Shown here one piece after another: positions 3,504 to 50,246 of a stretch of 64,000 nt of DNA. This stretch comes from Alphaproteobacteria bacterium (GTDB lineage: Bacteria; Pseudomonadota; Alphaproteobacteria; SP197). The notes under the pieces were generated by a model. The model ran no database searches, was not told the DNA's origin, and was given only the letters and a program-made list of their open reading frames with translations. Position 1 is the stretch's first letter. Every line of letters starts with the position of its first letter. Where the stretch lies: the NCBI GenBank assembly GCA_964291265.2, contig OZ219747.1:3904001-3968000 (forward strand), read 5' to 3'. The position numbers and the translations under genes are program-made.

Positions 3504-3527
3504 CCCCCCCCCCCCCCCCCCCCCCCC
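3504..3527. repeat. C24 homopolymer tract
   Basis: 24 consecutive C at the junction between the ilvB promoter region and accessory DNA. Confidence 0.9.
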
Positions 3528-15365: not shown

Positions 15366-15710
15366 TGCAGTCGACCGAGTTCCCTCGCATGCTCGCGGAC
15401 CGCGAACTCGGCCTCCCTGCTCAGGAAGGTTCGGCGAGGCCGTGCACGTCGCCCACCTTGGCGGCCATGGCGACCTCAAGCATGGTCTCGATCCCGGCAG
15501 TCAGATCACATGTTCAGACCCGCTTCATCAGAACCGCCGCAAGACACCTCGTCGGGTTCCGGGGCCGGTCAGAGCGTGTGCAGCACCAGGAACGACAACC
15601 GCTGCTGCGTCATGTTTGTCATGACTCGACAAGACCGGCTGCCATCCCGGGCTGTCGGTGCGGCGGTGATGGCCGGAGAAGCCTGGGTGCCGTGATGCTG
15701 CGGAAAAAGG

Positions 15711-15739
15711 GTTGCATGGCGGCGGCGGTACGACTATAT
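15711..15739 (+). promoter_or_regulatory. ssrA promoter
   Basis: GTTGCA-N17-CTATAT, close to the alphaproteobacterial CTTGAC-N17-CTATAT consensus, directly upstream of tmRNA. Confidence 0.65.
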
Positions 15740-15744
15740 GACGG

Positions 15745-16003
15745 GTTGCCCGGTGCGCCGGGCTATGGCGATAAATGTCGTTCGGAATAGACGTTGCGGA
15801 CGCGGGGGCAGTACCCGCCGCCTCCACCATCAACCCATGGGGGCGAACCAGGATCGACGTGCGTGGCAAAGGTGCGATTTTCGCCCGGCATGATACCGCC
15901 GTTATCGGGTCAATCACACAAACGCCAACGACAACGAGGCGTTCGCTGTCGCCGCTTGAGCGACAAGCGCGGTTTGGAGGGCACCGGGCAACAGAAGCCC
16001 TCC
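15745..16003 (+). ncRNA. ssrA: Circularly permuted two-piece tmRNA, tag ANDNEAFAVAA
   Basis: Acceptor 3' part GCGGGGGCAGTACCCGCCGCCTCCACCA (ends 15829) precedes GGGGGCGAACCAGGATCGAC (15839); tag ORF 15924-15959; next to sspB; outer ends approximate. Confidence 0.95.
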
Positions 16004-16035
16004 GTCATGTCATTCCCTGACGGTCCGAACGAGCG

Positions 16036-19649: not shown

Positions 19650-20660
19650 CTACTTCCAGCCGTTCTCTTCCATGATCTCGAGAGCGCGGGCGCGGTTGGC
19701 TCCGAACACCGCCGCATCGATGTCGTCGGCGACGAAGTCCCCGTAGAGAGCATCGAGCACATCCGCATGGGTGATGCCGTCGACCACCGGCCATTCGTTG
19801 TTGCTGTCGGCGAAGACCTGCTGGGCCATGTCGCTGGCCAGAAACTCCAGGAAGGCGATGGCGTTGTCGCGGTTGGGGGCGTGGGCGGCCACACCGGCCC
19901 CTGAAATGTTGACGTGGACCCCGCGGTCACCCTGGTTCGGCATGACGACGCGGATGGCATCGGCGATGTTCCGACTGGCCGGATCGTCGGATCTCGCAAG
20001 ACGTGCCAGGTAGTAGGTGTTGGCGACGGCGATCTCGCACTGGCCGGCGGCCACCGCCCTGATCTGGCCTGTATCGTTGGATTCCGGTTCACGCGCCATG
20101 TTGGCCACCAGCCCCCTCACCCATTGCGCGGTGTCGTCCTCGCCATTGGCGACGATGAGCGAGGCCACCAGAGACTGGTTGTAGATGTTCCCGGATGAGC
20201 GAATGCAGATGGCATCGTCAAACCGCGGATCCGCCAGATCCTCATAGCGTTCGAGGCCTGTCGAATCGAAGTCGCTCTTCACCATGATCACGCGGGCGCG
20301 CCTGGTGAAGGCAAACCACTCGCCATCGGGATGGCGCAGGGAGGCGGGTATCCGGGATTCCAGCTCGGTCGAGGAGACGCCCTGGAGTAGTCCGTTGAGG
20401 GAGGCGGACATCAGGTTCGAGGCATCGGCCGTCATGAAGACGTCAACGGGACTGTTCCTGCCTTCGATCCTCATCCTCTCCATCAGGGCGCCGGCCTTGT
20501 CCTCGATGACATTGACGGTGACTCCGGTGGCCTCGTGGAAGGCTTCATAGAGCTGGGTATCGGCATCGTAGTGGCGTGCCGTATAGAGGTTGACCTCACC
20601 GTCCGCCGCTGCCTGCAGCGACAGGGAGACGAGAGTGAGCGCAACAATTCGCACGGACAT
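19650..20660 (-). CDS. fbpA: Fe3+ ABC transporter substrate-binding protein (FbpA/FutA type)
   Basis: VNLYTARHY, RSSGNIYNQSL, NTYY, HVNISG; signal peptide from ATG 20660. Confidence 0.93.
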   Translation of the reverse strand: MSVRIVALTLVSLSLQAAADGEVNLYTARHYDADTQLYEAFHEATGVTVNVIEDKAGALMERMRIEGRNSPVDVFMTADASNLMSASLNGLLQGVSSTELESRIPASLRHPDGEWFAFTRRARVIMVKSDFDSTGLERYEDLADPRFDDAICIRSSGNIYNQSLVASLIVANGEDDTAQWVRGLVANMAREPESNDTGQIRAVAAGQCEIAVANTYYLARLARSDDPASRNIADAIRVVMPNQGDRGVHVNISGAGVAAHAPNRDNAIAFLEFLASDMAQQVFADSNNEWPVVDGITHADVLDALYGDFVADDIDAAVFGANRARALEIMEENGWK

Positions 20661-20676
20661 CGTGTTCCCCTTTTCT

Positions 20677-20754
20677 TGCGAATGATTATCACTAGCCCCT
20701 CTGTGGCGCACCACCAGCCGCATGTCAAGTCGTTTGCGAATGATAATCAATGTC
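20677..20754. promoter_or_regulatory. Two Fur-box-like operators upstream of fbpA
   Basis: GCGAATGATTATCACTAGC (20678-20696) and GCGAATGATAATCAATGTC (20736-20754), AT-rich islands in GC-rich DNA. Confidence 0.75.
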
Positions 20755-21250
20755 AAATACGCAATGCGCCACCGAAGCCCCGGCGCCTTGTCTGGCTCCC
20801 CCTGCCTGTGAGAGCTCGCAATGTCCCCGCCACGACCAAGGTCCTTGCCGCTGCATTGCGCCATGTTGCCAACGTGTTCCCGGATGAACGTCGTGAACGA
20901 CTGCTCGCTCCTAGCGATCATGGGTCGTCCTGACGGCGCAGGGGTAAGGACATCGTGGCCCGGCGAGCTCGGGCCTGGCGCTGTTCGGCGTGTCGAATCG
21001 CGCCGGTCCCGCACTGGAGGATTCGGACGTGACCGCGGAACCCAAGTGCCTGCTCGACGATGAGCCGACCGGACGGCAGGAGATGACGGGGGCGACCGAC
21101 GCGGTGTGCGGCCCGGCAGCCGGTCCCGGTGCTGTCGAGCGCGGCGCGTGTGTTGCGGCCATCTTTCATATGCTTTACGGATTGCACTGATGGGTTCGCT
21201 GCGGTCGTGCGGGCGCGGCGGCCCGGATTTCGTGACGGGAGGATGAGGTC

Positions 21251-24200
21251 ATGACGCAGACGCCTTACGATATCGGGATGCATGGCCTGCGGCTTTTCGG
21301 ACGGAGCGTGAGCGCCTCACGCACGCGCGAACCCCAGAACTTTGTACCCCCCCCCCCGCTCAAGAGTTAGGGCGCGGGGCTGAGCCGGTGGGCGCCCTCG
21401 GGAGAACCGTCCGCCGCCTGAGCGCGGAACTCGCTGCCCTCTTCCTCATCACGCTGGCCGCCGCCCTCGCGCCCCAGGACGCACAGGCGCAGGAGAAGCC
21501 GGCGCTCACGGCAACCGCGGGTGTCGGCAGTGTCACACTCACCTGGACTCGTACCGGCAACACTGGATTTGGATATTGGGTCTACCGACAGGGGGTCACC
21601 GGAGGAGGTTACGGCGACTGGATCGATATACCGGGCGGCGCCACCATCAGAGCCCACACGGTCACAGGGTTGACCGCCGGCACCTCCTATACCTTCCAGG
21701 TGGCAAGGGCAGAAGGTACCGGTCTCAACTTTTCCGTCTTCGCTAGTGGGGGAGGGTACTCGAACGGGGCGTCAGCTACGCCGACGGCGGCCACGACCAC
21801 GACGCCCGCCGCCCCGACGGGTCTGACGGCGACGCCCGGCGGCCCCGCGCAGGTGTTGCTGACGTGGACCAAGCCGACTGGCACGATCACCGGCTACAAG
21901 CTGCGCTACGCCAAGACGCCGTCAAAGGCCAGCGCCACCTGGGGTACCATGACGGGTTCGGGCGCGAACACCGTGAGGCACATGGTGACGGGCCTGGACA
22001 ATGGCAGCGAATACAGTTTCATGATCCGTGCGGTGAACGCCTCCGGCGACGGCGCCGCCACGGGCTGGGTGACGGCGACGCCTGCGGACAGCTGCCCTGG
22101 CGTGGGAGCACCGACGAACCTGAGCCTTGCGCCGCGTTCGGACGGGTTTGCCGTCACCTGGACGGCGCCGACCGATGTACTCCGCAACGGCTGGGAATTG
22201 TCTTACAAGAAGACCGGGGGCAGTTCGACCTCTGTCACGATCTCGAATGCCGCCGCGACCAGCCACACGCTGACCGGCCTGGAGGCCGGCACCGAATACG
22301 AGATCGCTCTTCAAGCAACGCATCCTTTCAATCCCGATCCTACTGCGTCATGTCCTCCAGGCTCCCGCGCAAAAGCCACCGGCACGACCACGGCCGCTGC
22401 CACCGCCGGGGTGACGATCTCGCCGACATCGCTGACGGTGGAAGAGGGGAGCAGCGAGACCTACACGGTGAAGCTGGACAAGGCGCCCTCGGCGAACGTG
22501 ACGATCACGGTGGGCGGCGCATCGGGCGAGGTGACGGTGGCGGGTTCACCGTTGACCTTCACGCCAAGCAACTTCAGCACCGCGCAGACGATCACGGTGC
22601 GTGCCGCAGCCGACGACGACACGCTGGACGACACGGCGACGCTGACGCACGCGGCGTCGAGCACCGACACGGACTACGGCGCCTCGCTCGACATCGACGA
22701 TGTGGACGTGACGGTGACGGACACGACGCCGATCCTGCAGCTTCTGACCGACCCGGCGGCGGTGACCGAGGGGACGGCGATCAGCCTGACGGTGACCTCC
22801 GACAAGGCGCAGACGGGGGACCTGACGGTGAGCATGGTGCTGTCGGACCGTGGTTCGAGCGGTTTCGATGCGGACGACATTACCGGCACGCTGGGCCCGC
22901 GCGCCTTCATCGTGGCTTTTGGCAACACTGCCAGCACGACGGGCACGGTGACCATCCCGACCAGCACCGATTCGACTGTGGAGGGCGCGGAGACCTACCG
23001 CATCACGCTGGAAGGCGGTGCCGGCACCTACAAGGTCGGCACCGATGCGACCGCCGACGGCACGCTGAACGACGGCACGACCGCTTCCGTTCCAGCCGCA
23101 CCGGCGGGCCTGTCGGCGGAGGCGGGCAACGCGCAGGTGAAGCTGACGTGGACCGATCCGGACGACGATTCGATCACGCGGTATCGGGTGCAGCAGAGGA
23201 AGGGGACCGCCGCCTGGGGCAGTTGGACCGCGATTCCCGGTTCGGACGCCGACACGGTGAGCTACACGGTGACGGGTCTGACGAACGACAGCGAGTACCG
23301 CTTCCGCATCCGGGCGCGGAACAGCGGCGGCAACGGCGCCGCGTCGGCGGTGGTGGAGGCGACGCCGTCGGCGTCGGCGGCGGTTCCCAAGCCGGTGCTG
23401 AGCGCCGAAGCGGGTTACGCCAGGGTCACCCTGAGCTGGAGCGCGCTGTCGGGTGTGACGGTAGCGAGCTGGGGCTATCAGTACAAGCCCGCGGGCGGCA
23501 GCTGGATCAGGACCCGGACGGTCACGGGCGCCAGCACGACGAGCACCACGGTGACGGGACTGACGATCGGCACGGAATACACGTTCCGGCTGTTTGCGGC
23601 AGTCAGTCCCGGGGTGCAGTCGGTGTGGTCGGACCAGGTGAAGGCGACGCCGACGAATACGGTTCCCAAGCCGGTTCTGACGGCGGCAGGGGGCGATGCC
23701 TCGGTCACCCTGAGCTGGAGCGCCTTGACGGGCATTCCGATCACGAGCTGGGGCTATCAGTACAAGAGCACGGGCGGCTGGAGCACGACCACGACGCTCA
23801 CGGGCGCAAGCAGGACGAGCGTCCGGGTGACGGGTCTGACGAAGGGCACGGACTACACGTTCCGCCTGTTCGCGGCGGTCCGTCCCGGGGAGCAGTCGGT
23901 GTGGTCGGATCAGGTGACGGCGAAGACCGATCCGGCGGCCCCGGTGCTGACGGCGGCGACTTCGACGACGAACGGGCAGATCGACCTGACCTGGACCCAT
24001 GCCGGCGGCTCGAACGAGTTATCGGATGCGGACGACTATGTGAAAGACGCGGCCAAGTTCCATTGGTGGAGAGCGCAGACCCGGCTGAAGGGGGCAAGCA
24101 CCTGGACGGATCACAGTCTCAACCAGGCGAGTGCCAGACAGAATCCGGGCTCTCGCAACAATCGGCTTCTGCTGAACTATCCTGACGGGGCATCGGTCGA

Positions 24201-27200
24201 GGTCCGGGTTCGGGCGACGGGCTATCGCATGGCGGGGGTCGCCGGGGGAACGGGGAACCTTCAGGGTCCCTGGTCGAACATCCGTACGGTGACCTTCAAG
24301 GACGACACCACGGCGGCGCTCACGCTGACCGGGACGCCGGTGACGGTGGCGCCCGGTTCCACGGCGACCTACACGGTGGCGCTGACGAAGGCCTATGCGG
24401 GGACACTGCGGGTGACGAGCGACGACACGGCGGCGGCGCGGGTCAGTCCGGCGAGCCTGACCTTCACCACCAGCAACTACAGCACGGCGCGGACGGTGAC
24501 GGTGACCGGGGTGGCGAACGGCACGGCGGTGATCAACCACGCCTTCCGTCTGACGGGAGCTTCTGCGGATGCGATTCCCGACGCGGGCACGGTGGACGTG
24601 ACGGTGGCCGATACGCCGGGGGTGACGGTGTCGACGGCGGCGCTGACGGTGGCGGAAGGCGGCAGCAGGACGTACACGATGCGGCTGAACACGCCGCCGA
24701 CATCGGATGTGACGATCACGGTGGCGGGCGCGTCGGGGGACGTGACGGTGACGGGCGCGTCGCTGACCTTCACCAGAGCCAACTGGAACCAGCCGCAGAC
24801 GGTGACGGTGAACGCAGGCACGGACACGGACACGACGACGGACGCCGCCGTAACGCTGACCCACAGCGCGTCTGGCGGCGGCTACGCCTCGGTGACCATC
24901 GCCTCTGTGGTGGTGAGCGTGGCGGAGAAGGATGTGGCGCCCGGGAAGCCGGCCGGCCTTGCCGGCGCGGCGGGCAACGCTTCGGTGACGCTGAGCTGGA
25001 CCGACCCGGACAATCCGACCATCACCAAGTGGCAGGTGCGGCGGAAGGCCGGCAGCGACGACTGGGGCGCGTGGGAGGACATTCCCGGCTCCGCTGCGGG
25101 CACCACCAGCTACGAGGTGAGCGGTCTGACGAACGGCACTGCCTACCAGTTCGAGGTGCGCGCGGTGAACGGGGCCGGCAACGGCGCCGGTCCGGATGCG
25201 CCGGTGACGGCGACGCCGGCGGCGCCGGTGGCGCCCGGCGGAGGCGGCGGTGGCGGTGGCGGAGGCGGCACGACGCCCACCGCAGACGCAAGCGTGACGG
25301 TGACACCGACCGCGCTGACGGTGGCGGAGGGGAGCAGTGCGGCCTACACGGTGGTGCTGGACACGGAACCCTCGGGCGAGGTCACGGTGACGGTGGGCGG
25401 CGCTTCGGGCGAGGTGACGGTGGAACCGGCGAGCCTGACCTTCACCACGGCCAACTGGGACACGGCGCAACGGGTGACGGTGCGCGCGGCCCGTGACGAG
25501 GACACGACCGACGACACGGCGACGCTGACCCATGGTGCGAGCGGCGGGGGCTACGCTTCGGTGACCATCGATTCGGTGGCGGTGACGGTGACGGACACGA
25601 CGCTCTTGCCGGTGCTGACCCTGGCGCAGGATCCGGCGGCGGTGACCGAGGGCGAGGCCATCCGCCTCGTGGTGAGCGCCGACCGGGCGCTGACGGGCAG
25701 TCTGCGGGTGAGCCTGACCCTGGCGTCCCGGGACGGCGGCGGCTTCGATGCCGGTGACGTTCCGGGCGGTCTGGGTCCGCGTTCGTTCGATGCGGTGTTC
25801 GGCGCCGCGGGGCGGCGAACGGGCGTGGTGACGATCCCGACGGCGGCCGATGCGGATGCGGAAGGCGCGGAAGCCTACCGCATCACGCTGAACGATGCGG
25901 CGGACTACGTGGTGGGGAACGACGCCACGGCGCTTGGCGTTCTGCGCGACCGGGCGGCGGGGTCCATGGCAAGGTCGAACCGGGTGAATGCGGCGGTGCT
26001 GCCGCACGTGGCGGCGGCGGCGATGTCGCAGACCCTGGGGGCGGTGACGGGTCGCATCGAGGCGGTGGCCTCCGGCGAGGGGGGCGGCACGGTGCAGTTC
26101 GGCGCCCTGCCGTCACCGGTGGAGGACGCGTGGGCGTCGCCGCACCCGGAGGAGCCCGGCCCGAGCATGGCCGAGGTGCTGGACGGCGCCTCCTTCACCC
26201 TGGCGGCGGGCGCCGAGGGCGAGGCCTCCGCGCCGCCGCTGGCCGTGTGGGGCCGGGGCGCGTGGCTGTCGCTGTCGGGTTCGCAAGGCGGCGTGTCGTG
26301 GGACGGCGGCCTGTGGTCGGCGCAGCTGGGGGCGGACGTGCGCCTGCGCCCCGACCTTCTGGCCGGGGCGGCGCTCTCCCATGTGCGGGGCGAGCTGGAC
26401 ACGCAGACGGACCAGGTGAAGGGCGTCCACGAGACCACGATCACGTCGGTGCATCCCTATGCGGCGTGGTTGCTGGCGGACGGCTCGACCCTGTGGGCGA
26501 GCCTCGGCTACGGGACCGGCGAGGTGCGGATTGCCGAGGAGGGGGCGCCGGTGCGCAGCACGGACCTGGCGCAGTGGAGCGCGGCGGCGGGCGCCCGCAG
26601 CGTCCTCATCGAGCATGCGGACCTCATCGAGGGCGGCATGACGCGCCTTGCGGTCAAGGGCGAGGGCGCGCTGGCGCGCCTGCGCACGGAGGCCGATGAC
26701 GGCCTGGCGGGACTGACGGCGAGGACGACCCGCCTGCGGCTGCTGCTGGAGGGGTCGCACGAGCATGCGCTGGCAAGCGGTGCGACGCTGACCCCGGCCC
26801 TGGAGGCGGGGGTGCGCCATGACGCGGGCGACGCCGCCGAGGGGGCGGGCCTCGAGGCCGGGGCGAGCGTGACATGGCGGGACCCGGCGGAGGGTCTGAC
26901 GGCGGAGCTGCGCACGCGGCTCCTGGCGGCCCACGAGGCGGACCGTGACGAGTGGGGTGTGAGCGCCCTGGTGCGCCTCGACCCCGGGGCCGACGGGCTT
27001 GGAACCTTCCTCGCCTTCGGTCCCGCGCACGGGCGCACGGAGAGTGATCTGGGAGAACTGTTCGACCACGGCCTGCCCGCGGCCGTCTCCGACACGACAT
27101 CGGCAGAGGGCCGCCTGGAGGCGGAGGCGGGCCACGGCTTCGGCCTCGCCGGTCCGGGGCCTCTCGTGGTGCTCACCCCCTGGGCGGGCTTGAGCCTGGC

Positions 27201-27339
27201 GGAGACCGGCGGGCGCACCCTGCGGCTCGGCGCCCGCTACCGCATGGGCGCGGGACTCTCCCTCGGCCTCGAGGGCGCGCACCGGCCGGGGCCGGTCAGC
27301 GAAGACAGCCTCATGCTGCGCGGCGCCCTCAACTGGTAG
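21251..27339 (+). CDS. Giant FN3/Ig-like repeat autotransporter adhesin (frameshifted at the poly-C; open frame 21388-27339)
   Basis: Signal-like hydrophobic stretch ending AQA; multiple FN3 domains (VTLTW...VTGLTxGTxYxF); Calx-beta-like repeats; beta-barrel-like C-terminus ending in W. Confidence 0.85.
21347..21357. repeat. C11 tract in the autotransporter 5' coding region (putative slipped-strand switch)
   Basis: With C11 the ATG 21251 frame stops at TAG 21368-21370; with C12 or C9 it reads into the 1983-aa ORF. Confidence 0.8.
23383..23915 (+). repeat. Tandem duplicated FN3 module (279-bp period)
   Basis: VPKPVL...VTLSWSAL...SWGYQYK...YTFRLFAAV.PG.QSVWSDQV occurs twice (23383, 23662). 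Confidence 0.85.
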
Positions 27340-27717
27340 GAGAGGCGGAGCCGAGCACCTTCCCGGCGGCACGGCGCCCGTCGGATACCGCCGCGTCACG
27401 GCATCCGAGCCGTGTCTCGCGCCCGACACCTGAAACAACAACTGATGGATGAGCGGCAGCATCGTCATGCCGAGGTCTACGCAACACTTCATGATGTCGC
27501 GTGAGGCAGAACTGTCCAACGCTCACCGGGTTCTCTTCGGGCATGCAAATCGGAATCCGCACACGTCATTCTGTCATGTTGCAACCGTGCTCCCGAACTG
27601 CCATGAACGTCGTCGTATCTGGTCGAATCGGGCGCAGGCCAAAACCCATGTCTTCGTGCCGCCATCCCGTGCAACCTGATTCCCGTATCCAGCCGGCCGA
27701 TGTCGGGCAAGCTGCTC

Positions 27718-30700
27718 TCAGTCAAGCAGGCGCAGGATGCTGCCGCTTTCCTCGTTCCCCGGAACGTCCACCGTACCCTCATCGTCTTCGCCCGACACAG
27801 GCGGAGGCGATTCCGGAGTCCCCTCCTCCTCCAGGACCCAGAGAAGGAGTGAACCGCCATCCTCTTCCGGCTCAATGACGAGAGTTTCACTCTCCGGCAC
27901 GCCGGGTTCAGCCGCTGCCGGCTCATCGGATGGAGTGGGCGGCTCTTCTTTCGGCAGGAGAACGGGTTCGCTGACGAGATGCGTCTCCAGCCGTCTGGTG
28001 TCGACGACAAGATCGGTTTCGTCGAGGGGGCCGGCGACGATCATGGAGACCTCCGGGAGACCGACGCTGCCGGTCAACTGCACCGACCCGGCAAGACTGA
28101 CCCAGCGGCGCGGCAGATCGACCTCAAGCTCATAGACGCCTTCGGCGCCATTGAAGATGACGGAGAGATCATCGGAGCGGATGACACCCTTCGACATGGA
28201 AAGGGACGCGTCAGCCGTGATGATGCCGGACGTGCCCTCACCGGTGGAACGCGAAATCCCTTCTGCGATTTCGGCACTCTCCCCACCGGCGGCCAGCAGA
28301 CCCGCCATCGCCTGAAAATCGAAACCCTCCACCGCGCCACGCTGGAGCGAAAACCGTCCCTCACCGGCAAGGCTCTGCAGGAGATCGTCGCCCTTCAGCC
28401 CCCGCGCCGTCCCGTCGACCGCGAGGAGAAGGCGGCCGGAGAGCGTGTCCCGCTCCGCCATGGCAGAGAATATCTCCCGGAGTTCAACGTCCTCGAAGGC
28501 AAGGGAGTAGGTCACCTCGTGGGGCAGACCGTGACGGACGGTGCCGGAAACCAGAACGGTTCCGCCGAAGAGCGATCCCGACAGGGTCTCGAGATGAAGG
28601 AGGCCGTCCTCGGCCCCGGAGCGCAGGAGAACGTCATCGAGCGCCAAGCCGCCGACGACGAGGTGATCCGCAGCAAGGTCGACGCGTCCATCCACCTCAC
28701 CGATGGCCTCGACAAGCGGGCCGGCCAGGACATCGAGCTTGATCGTGTCCGCATCGAGAAGAAGGTTGACCACCGGCCGGACGGCGGATGCCGACCACTC
28801 GGCCGCACCCTCGAACGAAGAGGGCCCCATGGTGACCCGCTCAAACACGACACGTCCTTCCTCGAGCGACCCGGCGGCCTTGACGGCGACATCGAGCGGC
28901 CCTTCCAGGTCCGCACTCACGGCGAGGCCCACGCGGTCCATCAGGTCACCGGGATCGGCATGTCTGAGAACAGCTCTTCCTTCTTCAAGAACTCCGTTCC
29001 GCAGACGGCCATGGACGTCGAACGCGGCACCAAGGGTATCGGCGGCAACGGCAAGGTTCATTTCGAGGGGTGTCCAGTTGACATCGGTGGAGAGCGTGAA
29101 GGCATCACCCTCACTTCCGGGCAGGTCGAGCCCGGCAAGACTCGCCGCAGCCGCGAGACTCGCCCCTTCGACGTCAATGGCGCCTCGAAACGACGGGTCG
29201 GCGAGCGGTTGATTGAGGTGGCCTTCGACGGCGAAGTCCGCAACAGCGGTCGTCAGCGAACCCTCGAGGTCGACGCTCTCGAACGTCCCACGCACGGCAA
29301 GAGTCAGGTCCACGTTCCCCAAGCGCTGCAGATCGACCGGCGATTCGATGTCGGCCCCGCGCACGACGGCGTCCACGTCCGCCGTCCCGATCTCGACGTC
29401 GAACGCCAAGGCCCGGCGAACCGGTTCAATCGTCCCGGTTGCCCTGACTGCAGCACCCCAGACATCGCGTGCCTCGAGGCGTCGAAACTCCAGGGCGCCC
29501 TGGTTCAGGGCGCCATCGACAGACACCCCGGCGGCGACAACATCGCCCATGACCAGTGTTCCGACCTCGCTCCTGACATCGATGTCGAACCCGGTCCAAT
29601 CCATCTCCGGAAAGGTGCCCACCAGGCCGACGGGAAGATAGGCGTCGAGCGCCAGTTCATCGATGCCGAGATCGGCAATGAAACTCCTCTTGTCAGTGAA
29701 GAGACCGATGAGTGTCCCGGTCACACGCGATGAATCGAGAACAAGATCCATGCCGGACAGGACAGCGGAACTTGGCGTCGCCTCACAGTGCGCCGACAAT
29801 CGAGCGGTCCTCAACCGGTCCCTCGGAACACTCTCCACGTCCATCCCGAGCCATGCGAGCGCATTCCTGAGATCGCTCGATGTGATGTCAATCGGCCCAC
29901 GAAAGATTGGCACATCACCCTTGATGCTGACAACACCGGTCACCGTGGCGTGCGTGTTGCCCGGCAGGAGCGCTGCGGCACGCTCGATGTCAATCGTGCC
30001 GTCAGCGGCGGACGCCACCACTTCGACCTGTCGTGCCGCCTGATTCCGATAGAGGGCATGTTCGACCGTGACATCCAAGGCGACGTGACGCTGGCGCAAC
30101 CAGGCGAACGCAGGGTGGTCACTCTGAATCTCCCGAGCCAACGCCACAAGACGATCAAGATCAAGCCTGCTGGAGGTCATGTGGACTGCCAGCTCGCCTG
30201 GCGACGATTCGATGGCGCCGAAGGCAACCGAGTCATCGAGCTGCAAGGCGAGGTCGCTGATTTCGACCGTGTCGGCGCCAATCGACATGACGGCATCGAA
30301 CGATGTCGGCAACGTTTGAGCCCCGGCAAGTCCCGTCAATCTGCCAAGGTCCGCGATATCCAGTCTCACGGTGCCAGCGAAACGGGCGTCGCTCTTCCAG
30401 TCCTGGAGGCTCCCCGCTGCCCGCAACGAGACGCCCTCGTCGGACACAATGGCAAAACTCACCGGAAGAGACTTTCGGGTCAGCCGCCCAAGGGCAGCGT
30501 CGACGGTCCATTGTCCGACATGTCCCGAAAGACTGCCGGTGATCTCGAAGGGGCCATCCACCCCCTTGGACTCAACGGCAAGATCAAGACCCTCGAACAC
30601 GCGGGTTCCGTGGAGCTCACTGTGCCAGGTCACCGTGGCATCGACAATCTCGATGGCATCGATCCGGACAGCCGAGCGAGAATTCGCCGCCGCAGCAGAG

Positions 30701-46419: not shown

Positions 46420-48338
46420 GTCGCGGTAGGGATGCGCATTGCTGCGCACCCCCCGCACAGATCCGGACATGGACGTTAATCCATCCGGCTCCTACCTCGG
46501 GTGCTTGACGGTAAACCGCTGGTCCGGCCATGGGTGGCGGATGGAGACGCGCGGCCAAAGAAGCTCGGTCATGCGCTCCAATCGCTTCCAGTCAAAGCAG
46601 TGGCGCTGGGAGCGGCGGCGGATCGCTCGCAGCCATAGGCGTTGCAGCCTTTGGCGGAACGTGCGCAGCCATCGGGTCGACCCCGGAACGGCGAAGTAGT
46701 TGGACCAGCCATTGACAACTCGCCCAAGCCACATGCCGACCTCCCATATGTCGTGATGCCGTCGATTGCGAAGCACCTCCTCGATGCGCGCCAGGGTCCT
46801 TGCGACCCGTTTTGCGACCGGCTTGCGACCAAGCCTGAAGCGTCCTCTCCGGGTCTCCGTGCAGAAGTGCGTGAAGCCCAGGAAGTCGAACGTCTCCGGC
46901 CTGCCCGCCCCGCGAGATCGCCGGTTCGCCTTGGCAAACCGTCCAAACTCAACGAGACGGGTCTTGTCCGGGTGAAGGGTGAGACCAAAGCGGTCCAGCC
47001 TCTCCCGAACGTCGCGAAGGTATGTCTCCGCATCCCGCTTATGCTGGAACCCGACCACAATATCGTCCGCGTAGCGGACAATGATCGCTTTACCGTTCGG
47101 AACCTTCGGACGCCATGCCTTGTGAAACCACAGATCGAGCACGTAGTGCAGAAACACGTTCGCCAGGCAGGGGCTGACAATGGCGCCCTGAGGCGTGCCC
47201 GCACCGGTGTCGCTCCATGATCCGTCGGTCATGACGCCAGCGTTCAGCCACTTGCGGATCAGACGGATCACCCGCCTGTCGCCAATGCGATGCTCCAGGA
47301 ACTTGATCAACCAATCCCTCGGGATTGTGTCGAAGTACCCCTGAATGTCCGCGTCGACTATCCAGTTGACCTTGCGCCGCTCGATCCCGAACGCCAGGGC
47401 GTCGAGAGCGTCATGCGCCCCTCGGCCCGGTCGGAACCCGTAGCTGAAGCCAAGGAACTCCACCTCATAAATCGGTGTCAGGATCACATCCACAACCGCC
47501 TTCTGGACGATCTTGTCCTCCAGTGCGGCAATCCCGAGCGGTCGTGTCCCGCCGTCCGGCTTGGGTATCTCAACCCGCCGAACCGGCGGCGCCCGGTACG
47601 CTCCCCCACGATGCAGGCGCGAGTGCAGATCAAGCAAGCGCTCGTCCAGACCCTCGCCATACGCCGCCCACGTCACGCCGTCGACACCTGCCGAGGCTTC
47701 CTTCTTCAAACCGAAGTAGGCCGCCCGGAGCGCGTCCGGCGTAATGTGATGGAAGAGTGCAGTGAGACGCTCCTTCGGGTTCCTCTCTGCAGCTTCCCGT
47801 ATCCGGTCCGCCGCCTGTGGCACACTTGCCCGACACTGCGTTCGGTGCGTGCTTTGGCGTCCCGGATTCCCCTTGGTTGAGGCCCTTTCCTCCAGCGACT
47901 CCGCAGAAGCTGACGCTCCCTTGTTCGCCGCCTTCACCGGTCTTACGGCCCCATCCGACTTCTTCAAACCGTTCCTCATAGGCTTCGGCTTTCTCCTTTC
48001 CCTACACGGTCCCGCCACGACAGGCGGGATAGTTCGAAGACCTCCCAGGGTCCCAACAGAAGGCGTGCGGACGTGCATGGGTTCTCCGACACCGCGGGGC
48101 TCGCCGACATCTCACCAAATCGATGCCTGCGATGTTGCCTTCGACCGATGCGAAAGCCTCGGCACCCCGAACAACGGACTTTTCGGTGCTCATTAGCCCT
48201 GCCCATCCGTACCGCTACCGACGCTTCGCCTGCCCCCTCGCGGGAACCGACGCACGGCTCGCGGAGAAACGTGGTTTGGTTACTCCTTCGTTTCAGGGGA
48301 CTTTCACCCCCTACCTTCCGCCAGTTCGCCTGGCACAC
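46420..48338 (-). mobile_element. Group II intron (1919 nt, class E-like), antisense to the transposase
   Basis: 5' GTGTG at 48338; D5 GAGCCGGATG...TCCGGATCTGTGCGGGGGG; 3' end CCCTACCGCGAC at 46420; EBS1/EBS2 pair with the 5' exon. Confidence 0.93.
46492..48078 (-). CDS. ltrA: Group II intron reverse transcriptase/maturase, no endonuclease domain
   Basis: AGVDG, RPLGI, SYGFRPGR, GTPQG, RYADD, FDFLGFTH; true start may be internal. Confidence 0.95.
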   Translation of the reverse strand: MHVRTPSVGTLGGLRTIPPVVAGPCRERRKPKPMRNGLKKSDGAVRPVKAANKGASASAESLEERASTKGNPGRQSTHRTQCRASVPQAADRIREAAERNPKERLTALFHHITPDALRAAYFGLKKEASAGVDGVTWAAYGEGLDERLLDLHSRLHRGGAYRAPPVRRVEIPKPDGGTRPLGIAALEDKIVQKAVVDVILTPIYEVEFLGFSYGFRPGRGAHDALDALAFGIERRKVNWIVDADIQGYFDTIPRDWLIKFLEHRIGDRRVIRLIRKWLNAGVMTDGSWSDTGAGTPQGAIVSPCLANVFLHYVLDLWFHKAWRPKVPNGKAIIVRYADDIVVGFQHKRDAETYLRDVRERLDRFGLTLHPDKTRLVEFGRFAKANRRSRGAGRPETFDFLGFTHFCTETRRGRFRLGRKPVAKRVARTLARIEEVLRNRRHHDIWEVGMWLGRVVNGWSNYFAVPGSTRWLRTFRQRLQRLWLRAIRRRSQRHCFDWKRLERMTELLWPRVSIRHPWPDQRFTVKHPR

Positions 48339-49162
48339 CGCATCCAGTCCCTCAAGGCCTCGGGGCGCTCGCAGAAGGCCTGGCTGTGGACCGCGGTCAG
48401 CGCCGACTCCGTCTTCTTCCTTATCGACCCGTCACGCAGCACCCGGGTGGCCATGGTGCTGTTCGCCTCCACCGAAGGCACCGTCTTCCTTGTCTGCGAT
48501 CGCTACGCGGTCTACAGGAAACTGGAGCGTGAGCTTGATGGCAAGGTGATCCTCTGCCTTTGCTGGGCGCACTCCAGGCGCGATGTGATCGAGGCTGCGG
48601 CAGGCCAGGAGGGGCTGGAAGAGTGGTGCGACAAGTGGCTCGACAGGATCGCGCTGATCTACACACTGAATGGGCAACGGCTGAAGCACTACGATCCCGC
48701 ACGCAAGCGTCAGTCAGCGAGGTTCAATGCCCTGCAGAAGGACCTTCGTGCGGCTGTCGAGGCGCTGTTCAGGCAGGCTCAGGAGGAACTCGACGCCTTG
48801 CCCGAGGGTGCACGCGAAGCGAAGCCCTTGCGTTCCCTGATCCGTCACCGCGAGGGACTGTGCGTCTTTGTCGACCATCCCCAGGTGCCCATGGACAACA
48901 ACTTTGCCGAGAGAGCCCTCCGGGGTGCGGTGACCGCGAGAAAGCTGAGCTTCGGCTCCGACAGCGAGGAAGGCGCCGCCTTCACCGCCATCATGTACTC
49001 GGTCATCGGCACCCTTGCCATGAACAACATCAATGTTCGGCGCTGGCTTCATGAGTGGCTTGAGGCCTGCGCGCAGAACGGCGGCAAGCCGCCGGATGAC
49101 CTCGACCCGTGGCTGCCATGGTCGATGACCCCGGAGCGCCGACGGGACCTCATGGAACCGGG

Positions 49163-49507
49163 GTGATCGAGTGCCGTTACGACGGCCGTGACTTCACCGC
49201 GCACGAGATGGCGCTGCGCTCCCTGATCACCCAGCACCCCACCCGTGCGGCCATCGCCCGCGCCTTCTGCCGCAAGACCGGCTGGTACAAGCCCGACGGC
49301 GGCCTCAAGAACATGATGGCGAGTGTCACCTTCCTGGCCATGCACCGCGCTACACAGGCGCCGTCTACAAGGCGTCGGGTTGGATCCATGTCGGCACCAC
49401 CAAGGGGCGCGGACGCTACGATACGCACAGGAAACTCGACAAACCAAAAAAAGGACATCTGGCTGAGGCCTCTCCGCAAAGACTGGAAACTCATCCTCAA
49501 CCGGTGA
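49163..49507 (+). pseudogene. Internally deleted DUF4338-like passenger gene of the IS66 element
   Basis: RYDGRDFT..E, R.AIARAFC...W.KPDGGLK, then KPKKDIWLRPL..DW; GTGA overlap with the transposase stop. Confidence 0.6.
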
Positions 49508-49543
49508 ATATCACCAACAATCACTGCGCGACCGAACGCTTAC

Positions 49544-50005
49544 GGCCATGGAAGAGGTCGCCTCAGGCCATGTTCTCGCGCTGGGTTCAGGAGAACTTCT
49601 TCAAGGACATGCGTGACGCCTGGAACCTTGACGCTCTGCCTGAGCATGGCTTCGAGACGCTCGATGACGACACCCTCGTGGTCAATCCGCACATGAGGAC
49701 CGTGGGCAAGGACATCCGTGAAGAACCAGGCGCGCCTCGCTCAGCTGCATGTGCGGATCGCCAGGGGGCAAGACAACGGACGCTCTCGCTGCCGAGGTCG
49801 GCGCCATCGAGGAGGACCTCGCCGAACTCAAGGAGCGCCGCTCGACCCTGGCCAGCCATGCCCGTCTCGGCGAACGTGCCGGCAGCAACAGGCCCGACAC
49901 CCTGCCACGAACTCAACACACCTCCTCATCGATCTCGTCCGCATGATCTGCCATCGCGCCGAAACCCGCATGATGGCCCCCGTGATCCGGGGAAAGGCGC
50001 GACCC
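49544..50005 (+). pseudogene. Fragment of another putative transposase
   Basis: MFSRWVQENFFK.MR..WNLDAL, VVNP, DLVRMICHRAET across frameshifts. Confidence 0.55.
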
Positions 50006-50006
50006 A

Positions 50007-50246
50007 ACACCGCGGTTCGCCGGCATCTCACCATAGCGATGCCTGCGATGTTGCCTTCGACCGTCGCGAAAGCCTCGGCACCCCGAACAACGAGCTTTTC
50101 GGTGCTCATGAGCCCTGCCCATCCGTACCGCTACCGACGCTTCGCCTGCCCCCTCGCGGGAACCGACGCACGGCTCGCGGAGAAACGTGGTTTGGTTACT
50201 CCTTCGTTCCGGGGGACTTTCACCCCCAACCTTCCGCCAGTTTGCC
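50007..50246 (-). repeat. Truncated second copy of group II intron domain I
   Basis: Near-identical to about 48090-48330 but lacks the GTGTG end; EBS loops differ. Confidence 0.9.

Follow-up and report, generated by a model that had tools for sequence, protein, structure and literature searches.

A poly-C tract before an FN3 surface protein gene with a predicted wide autotransporter-type barrel is a probable translational phase-variation switch

The mechanism of SSR phase variation is textbook knowledge, and most descriptions of it come from vertebrate pathogens and commensals. For autotransporters, the accessible part of one report gives poly-C phase variation in the coding region as established for Neisseria meningitidis nalP and ausI (mspA) (PMC5472700). 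In autA and autB the repeat lies just 3′ of the start codon, in the signal-sequence region, with about 33 % ON expected without selection and 28-45 % ON seen for autA, according to the available portions of the source (PMC5118866). By definition, according to a source likewise available in part, the barrel of type Va autotransporters has 12 strands, and their passenger is usually a beta-helix; the Vb and Vd barrels have 16 strands (PMC6555100). In addition, a partly accessible study reports that FN3- and cadherin-domain proteins are enriched in sponge-associated MAGs, with lateral transfer and a proposed role in attachment (PMC8163846).

The locus described here lies in the window (the whole stretch of 64,000 nucleotides that was analysed) and belongs to a family of genes with a C tract at the 5′ end. 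By analogy, its proposed mechanism matches that of Neisseria nalP, ausI and autB, and the switch itself is a known kind of mechanism. However, nalP and ausI are single-copy protease genes of a pathogen in which switching has been shown, whereas the C-tract family is multi-copy, encodes FN3/Ig proteins, occurs in uncultured bacteria of several groups and presumably switches. The repeat of Neisseria autA/autB and Haemophilus lav/autB is an AAGC tetramer and that of the C-tract family a homopolymer; unlike autA, autB and lav, the family also has a variable leader of 14-47 codons before the run and an internal GTG after it. The features of the locus are as follows.

21153..21181, + strand: promoter-like TTGCGG-17 nt-TACGGA, a putative element with a weak consensus match
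21237..21242, + strand: Shine-Dalgarno sequence (SD) GGGAGG, −10.8 kcal/mol when paired with the 16S tail of this genome, 8-nt spacer to ATG 21251
21251..21370, + strand: frame of the SD-led ATG, encoding 39 aa as assembled (OFF)
21347..21357, + strand: C11 tract, then GC
21388..21489, + strand: GTG and 34-residue Sec-type signal peptide ending in AQA, by inspection and alignment
21388..27339, + strand: 1983-codon open frame, the surface protein body, GC3 0.87
21490..25950, + strand: passenger of FN3 and other Ig-like domains, fn3 231.7 bits, six stretches passing Pfam
25951..26070, + strand: predicted linker alpha-helix (helix 2-41 in model 2), aligning with autotransporter helices
26239..27336, + strand: C-terminal autotransporter-type beta-barrel with about 18 predicted strands, ending in W (PF03797, TIGR01414, models)

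The initial annotation had reported GGGAGG 8 nt before ATG 21251, the C11 tract and a 39-aa frame, and all three were found in the sequence; on translation this frame ends in NFVPPPPLKS at the stop codon TAG 21368-21370. Translation also bore out the long frame, which it had placed at an offset of one base from the ATG frame. This frame is open from 21247 to 27339, reads PPPAQELGRGAEPVGALGRT 3′ of the C11 tract and contains no ATG before GTG 21388. Its 1983 codons hold no second lesion, and the gene body is otherwise intact and shares 99.4 % identity over 5629 nt with paralogue G000:C2:743540 of the same genome. The gene is flanked by an ABC solute-binding protein gene (PF13343, presumably of the iron type) and an AsmA gene, both on the opposite strand. 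The run is followed by GC at this locus; in the five other autotransporter paralogue tracts and in the remnant C2:1501550, pure C runs into TCAAG.

We consider that the C11 tract is probably a translational phase-variation switch that was assembled in the OFF state. Transcription would start from about 21153-21181 and translation at ATG 21251, through a throw-away leader whose residues would be of no importance. Slippage of the C run during replication would then produce both ON and OFF cells, with one in three run lengths giving the full-length protein. That protein would be exported by Sec and inserted by BAM, and would then display its FN3/Ig passenger for adhesion. With at least six such paralogues switching independently, the population would present a mixed and changing surface.

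When the 5′ region was examined for transcription signals, 24 of the 32 family 5′ ends (defined below) showed a TTG-N3/17 nt/TA element 98-103 nt before the ATG, and the promoter consensus scan of 20600-21500 returned 0 sites. The promoter-like element lies 170 nt from the C tract; the ATG and the tract are therefore within the likely transcript, and the tract is not of the promoter-spacer kind. Folding of the RNA of 21215-21430 was no better than that of shuffled sequences (z 0.6), and thus neither a structured element nor pairing between the C run and the SD is supported.

When the 5′ region was compared within its own genome, nine matches were obtained, of which eight carry a run of 10-19 C at the equivalent position and one has a short run with an early stop; paralogues with poly-C at this position had been suggested as a check on the switch. 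Six of the tracts in this genome stand before autotransporter bodies (2 ON, 4 OFF), and all seven barrel relatives from other genomes have C9-C18 at the equivalent position. Five outside genomes were then searched and 41 loci screened, giving 31 rows that passed the filter (C run of at least 6 plus the downstream motif). After five rows had been dropped (no GTG anchor or no ATG) and the six own-genome copies added, 32 family 5′ ends remained, from six genomes of Alphaproteobacteria, Ca. Binatia and Ca. Porisulfidus.

Run length in the 32 5′ ends ranges from C9 to C33, a comparison of paralogues and homologues rather than of one locus across strains. Seven are ON, nine are OFF+1 (one base long) and 16 are OFF+2 (one base short), which does not differ significantly from even thirds (chi-square, p = 0.12), the copies being kin and two of them (L041 and L046) identical over the matched 311 nt. 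The ON fraction of 7/32 (22 %) compares with the 28-45 % of autA, and random frames are also expected of a non-coding leader. Near-identical leaders differ in length and state: L050 has C18 and is ON, L060 has C19 and is OFF, and L047, L057 and L066 have C18, C19 and C22, respectively. The inspected loci that failed the filter also have C runs (9-30). Judged from its sequence relatives, the tract at 21347-21357 is evidently no accident and has been kept in the family. The switch reading is supported because run lengths vary family-wide and because of the frame logic; on these grounds the phase-variable switch of the initial annotation stands, whereas we still infer switching and ATG initiation at the locus itself.

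The spread of 9-33 exceeds a one-base error, so that a mistaken OFF call would not by itself overturn the proposed switch. That the state call alone is wrong, with the switch intact, is unlikely. Homopolymers are the usual error of long reads, and ultra-low-input libraries are generally PCR-amplified. The gene might be fixed ON, with C11 a consensus error for an in-frame length and no switching at all, and several points agree with this. OFF+2 is the commonest state overall and all ten copies in genome G037 are OFF, and consensus under-calling could also produce both. Runs of at least 9 on the written strand of G000:C2 measure 9-24 for C and 9-12 for G (p = 7e-4, post hoc; no replichore effect), which may mean that lengths are unreliable, and gene orientation may account for part of this asymmetry. 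Ultra-low-input libraries were moreover used in some public sponge MAG projects, as the available part of one report states (PMC12988363), although this may not apply to the source assembly. The C11 length itself is that of the assembly. The four sequencing runs consist of assembled contigs, and none of their listed pieces bridges the tract with the locus's own flanks. Contigs X1 are identical to the window over 20400-21221, 21235-21335 and 27395-28000, and their match dips at 21334-21355, a dip that paralogy can explain. As controls, two 10-base runs within housekeeping-type genes, which we take to be valS-like and carboxyl-transferase-like, are in frame, as are 18/18 runs of 7-8 with a clear coding signal on both sides, most runs not being scorable. 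These control runs favour accuracy near the C11 length. The other genomes of the genus have no common C-over-G bias and lean either way, and the range of 9-33 occurs in near-identical flanks. We therefore regard a gene fixed ON behind a miscounted run as very unlikely.

The choice between ATG 21251 and GTG 21388 as start codon is central to the proposed switch. If GTG 21388 were the real start, directly or by re-initiation, the protein would be made at any run length and the tract would at most set its level. GTG 21388 alone yields a complete signal peptide, is conserved across the alignment, Ca. Binatia and Ca. Porisulfidus included, and is called as the start in 11 of the 23 database proteins listed; its presence in all 32 counted copies follows from its use as an anchor for inclusion. 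The leader stop precedes the GTG by 4 nt in OFF+1 copies, a distance at which re-initiation could be allowed, and by 17 nt at the 21388 locus. The GTG had been said to have no comparable ribosome binding site, and it does have a weak SD-like GGGG 8 nt upstream, at −6.2 kcal/mol against −10.8 for ATG 21251. A value of −6.2 is reached by 10.6 % of 4000 random GTGs, in other words at chance level, whereas only 0.9 % of 4000 random ATGs reach −10.3 or better. In the local fold the start region is mostly paired at the GTG (unpaired 0.15, versus 0.63 at the ATG). The SD of the ATG beats that of the GTG in 31/32 family 5′ ends (means −10.0 vs −6.3 kcal/mol).

The frames upstream of the body also argue against the GTG. 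The SD-ATG frame has no stop 5′ of the tract in any of the 32 family 5′ ends, whereas the other frames have stops in 15/32 and 29/32. Between the tract and the GTG the long frame is stop-free in 32/32; the other two frames each meet a stop no more than about 60 nt from the GTG, again in 32/32. At loci L055 and L118 the leaders are unrelated and the C run is kept and read through in frame; L118 has lost the GTG, yet its open body is in frame with its ATG. In eight database proteins (P0153, P0163, P0165, P0168, P0246, P0247, P0248 and P0270) the N-terminus comprises, in a single frame, a variable leader, poly-Pro and the signal peptide. Exceptions are L067, without an ATG in the 160 nt upstream, and L059, whose SD-led ATG frame stops before the tract. 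No protein-level constraint was detected in the first 17 leader codons (pN/pS 1.4), a comparison with little power because the signal peptide itself gives 1.1. About half of the leader indels in the 32 5′ ends are non-triplet. Taken with the frames, a start at GTG 21388 is improbable in our judgement, if not negligibly so.

As the 1983-aa protein started from GTG is already in the public protein collection, annotation misses the switch and not the gene; the expectation that automated annotation would miss it thus applied to the switch only. If the switch is real, MAG annotations that call the GTG hide it.

The paralogues also bear on whether the gene is simply a fresh pseudogene, damaged by slippage in a run that is not under selection and now in decay like several of its relatives. 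Damaged copies do exist (C2:1501550 with a deletion, C2:2735613 with a stop, C2:3114846 interrupted by pieces of group II introns and C2:3493615 with a gap), and a G interrupts the end of the C11 run. Nevertheless, the 1983 codons are free of further damage as noted above, the run is kept where the whole leader has been replaced, and 28/32 counted copies have 290 or more open codons 3′ of the GTG; recent decay of the gene is therefore a highly remote explanation. Two of the damaged copies show further detail. In the remnant G000:C2:1501550 the leader and a C19 run are fused to the last 30 barrel codons at a short shared motif. Paralogue 3114846 is in frame, but two group II intron pieces in tandem (RF02003; L132:3108-4069, G000:C2 about 3117400-3118900) break it off at 870 codons; their splicing could restore expression.

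The paralogue bodies are 97-99 % identical with their N-termini swapped, and the shared leader is also found at the start of proteins that end differently (P0168, with LRRs). Among 30 relatives from the genus and class the 5′ DNA gave four weak matches (22-41 nt) and no real one, and the barrel family is present in 15/22 genus genomes at identities of 47 % or less. Flank synteny was not found among the fetched loci. Metagenome scans gave 0 matches for the pattern and one for the N-terminal protein, the latter to an unrelated FN3 piece.

The protein had been called an FN3 autotransporter. Both the FN3 and the PF03797 matches pass their cut-offs, and the predicted strand number departs from that of a classical 12-stranded type Va protein. 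The signal peptide shows a basic n-region, a hydrophobic core and an AQA site by inspection. Between the fn3 stretches of the passenger there are weak matches to fn3_6, LapA and Calx-beta, below cut-off. PF03797 scores 46.7 bits (cut-off 26), covering only the first 96 of the C-terminal 362 residues, and TIGR01414 scores 21.8 bits (cut-off 16) on the barrel. PF03797 is found in 21/27 family members. A search with the barrel profile against PDB sequences returned no real match.

Two AlphaFold models were built. Model 1 (barrel only, 27 sequences) has about 18 strands at a pLDDT of 82, and model 2 (with the linker, 48 sequences) has a 40-residue helix and about 18 strands at a pLDDT of 81. Foldseek with the barrel-only model was unspecific. 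Over its whole length model 1 matches the porins MOMP 5ldv (Z 17.6, rmsd 5.8, 276 aligned) and Occ/OprD (Z about 16.5), which we take to be 18-stranded. The best fold matches of model 2 are EspP 8bnz, Hbp 3aeh, AIDA-I 4mee, AaaA, NalP 1uyo and EstA 3kvn, with Z 17.1-18.7, rmsd 3.8-4.3 and 250-273 aligned residues for the classical translocators. These matches end at residue 346-374 of the 463 in the model and cover the first 12-13 strands, about six more following. The added strands are amphipathic, with polar and apolar faces alternating. The models predict a single closed 18-stranded barrel. An internal duplication was considered as the origin of the extra strands and received no support (hhalign E 0.03-0.1, probability under 2 %).

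The protein resembles classical type Va autotransporters (EspP, Hbp, AIDA-I, NalP and EstA) in its signal peptide, passenger, linker helix, C-terminal barrel and terminal aromatic residue, and differs from them in its roughly 18 predicted strands and its FN3/Ig passenger. By these models it would work like a type Va autotransporter but, because about 18 strands are predicted, should not be filed as a classical 12-stranded one. From its domain content we infer the role of an adhesin. The barrel family comprises 5050 clusters at E below 1e-30, a terminal W is present in 142 of the best 150, and its Atlas clusters are named autotransporter with a score of 0.96. The predicted novelty is an autotransporter-type helix with a barrel of about 18 rather than 12 strands, in a family that numbers thousands of clusters. 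Barrel size is what distinguishes the type V classes from one another, and the limits of passenger export would be put to the test by a wide barrel whose passenger is of the Ig type. Our literature search, which covered listings, the available part of 10.1101/2022.10.09.511469 and few subscription papers, found no description of an autotransporter barrel with 18 or more strands.

When C/G runs were counted across the genome, 23 runs of at least 11 were observed against about 0.4 expected from the extended 4-to-6-mer decay. At least 16 of the 36 runs of at least 9 are at surface-protein genes: eight at 5′ ends of the C-tract family, two in other FN3 autotransporter-type genes and six in promoter spacers of RTX-repeat genes, of which a seventh falls below the length limit with G8. 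The two in other FN3 autotransporter-type genes are internal and at frame shifts (C13 at G000:C2:3048047, C10 at 3489775), the C13 joining frames of 1822 and 6217 codons. The RTX-repeat genes are located as follows.

G000:C2 165174, 246946, 548108, 587195, 1252314, 1338683, 3571804 (L133, L134): RTX-repeat genes with poly-G spacer

In these seven genes a run of G8-G19 separates a −35 box of the TTGAC type from a −10 box of the TAGAGT/TAAAGT type. The −35 box is usually present twice, at an interval of about 5 nt, and PF00353 is present in the two genes that were scanned. Promoter-spacer phase variation is likely for them. A further run was seen upstream of another RTX-repeat gene.

By comparison with these spacers, the run at 21347-21357 could be imagined to act on transcription, since its opposite strand reads TTGAGC-G11-TACAAA and would tune an antisense RNA. 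A TA-C(n)-TCAAG framing is indeed common to the C-tract and RTX-repeat families of this genome. However, a sigma-70 promoter needs a longer spacer than these 11 nt, the Ca. Binatia and Ca. Porisulfidus copies retain the run but have no TTGA box, and the scan of 20600-21500 gave no promoter-like site; such a role is most improbable. A translational switch remains our preferred reading of the run.

Other runs were noted as well. A TbpB/fHbp-like gene has C10 directly after its AGGAG-led ATG, out of frame with the body (L136:534-543, G000:C2:1929433), and the longest run of the genome, C24 at window 3504-3527, lies between an acetolactate-synthase-type gene (− strand) and a periplasmic binding protein gene (+ strand). 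In four genus relatives (G005, G011, G012 and G013; L021-L036) a distant autotransporter subfamily carries 8-mer repeats in 4-29 copies at the 5′ end. These repeats directly follow a TTGACA and a TATAAT box with a spacing of 20 or 23 nt instead of 17, and a canonical promoter with 16-18 nt spacing was found before 0/14 of them. The upstream SD-ATG frame is open to the repeats in 11/14 and in frame in 2/14.

The MAGs with the closest relatives of the barrel bear the titles Alphaproteobacteria, Ca. Binatia and Ca. Porisulfidus, the last of which is called a known sponge symbiont in the available part of one report (PMC12988363). Because of these relatives, a sponge habitat is suggested for the source genome and a sponge symbiosis for its bacterium. 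The sponge-MAG FN3 proteins are like the C-tract family in their FN3 domains, lateral transfer between distant lineages and proposed attachment role, as far as that study is accessible, and its main text gave 0 matches for 'phase variation' and 0 for 'autotransporter' (PMC8163846). Judged by its listings, our literature search found no report of a repeat-driven phase-variation switch in sponge symbionts.

A wider reading, possible but held tentatively and at somewhat less than even chances, is that a portable cassette of leader and poly-C, passed between distant sponge-type symbionts, endows every cell with a chance set of many surface adhesins, and that these adhesins are exported by an undescribed 18-stranded class of autotransporters. 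Perhaps, then, these are contingency loci in a host without adaptive immunity, with a barrel widened for folded FN3/Ig domains in thousands of clusters. If the switch is real, uncultured marine symbionts would randomise their surfaces without antibody pressure; the pressure might instead come from phage or from phagocytic cells of the host, or the benefit might lie in alternating attachment with release.

The genome measures 4.83 Mb in two contigs, with 64.7 % GC. A permuted alphaproteobacterial tmRNA is located at 15708-16005 of the window. At 46492-50220, a reverse transcriptase/maturase gene and an IS66 transposase lie between two group II intron D1-D4 matches.
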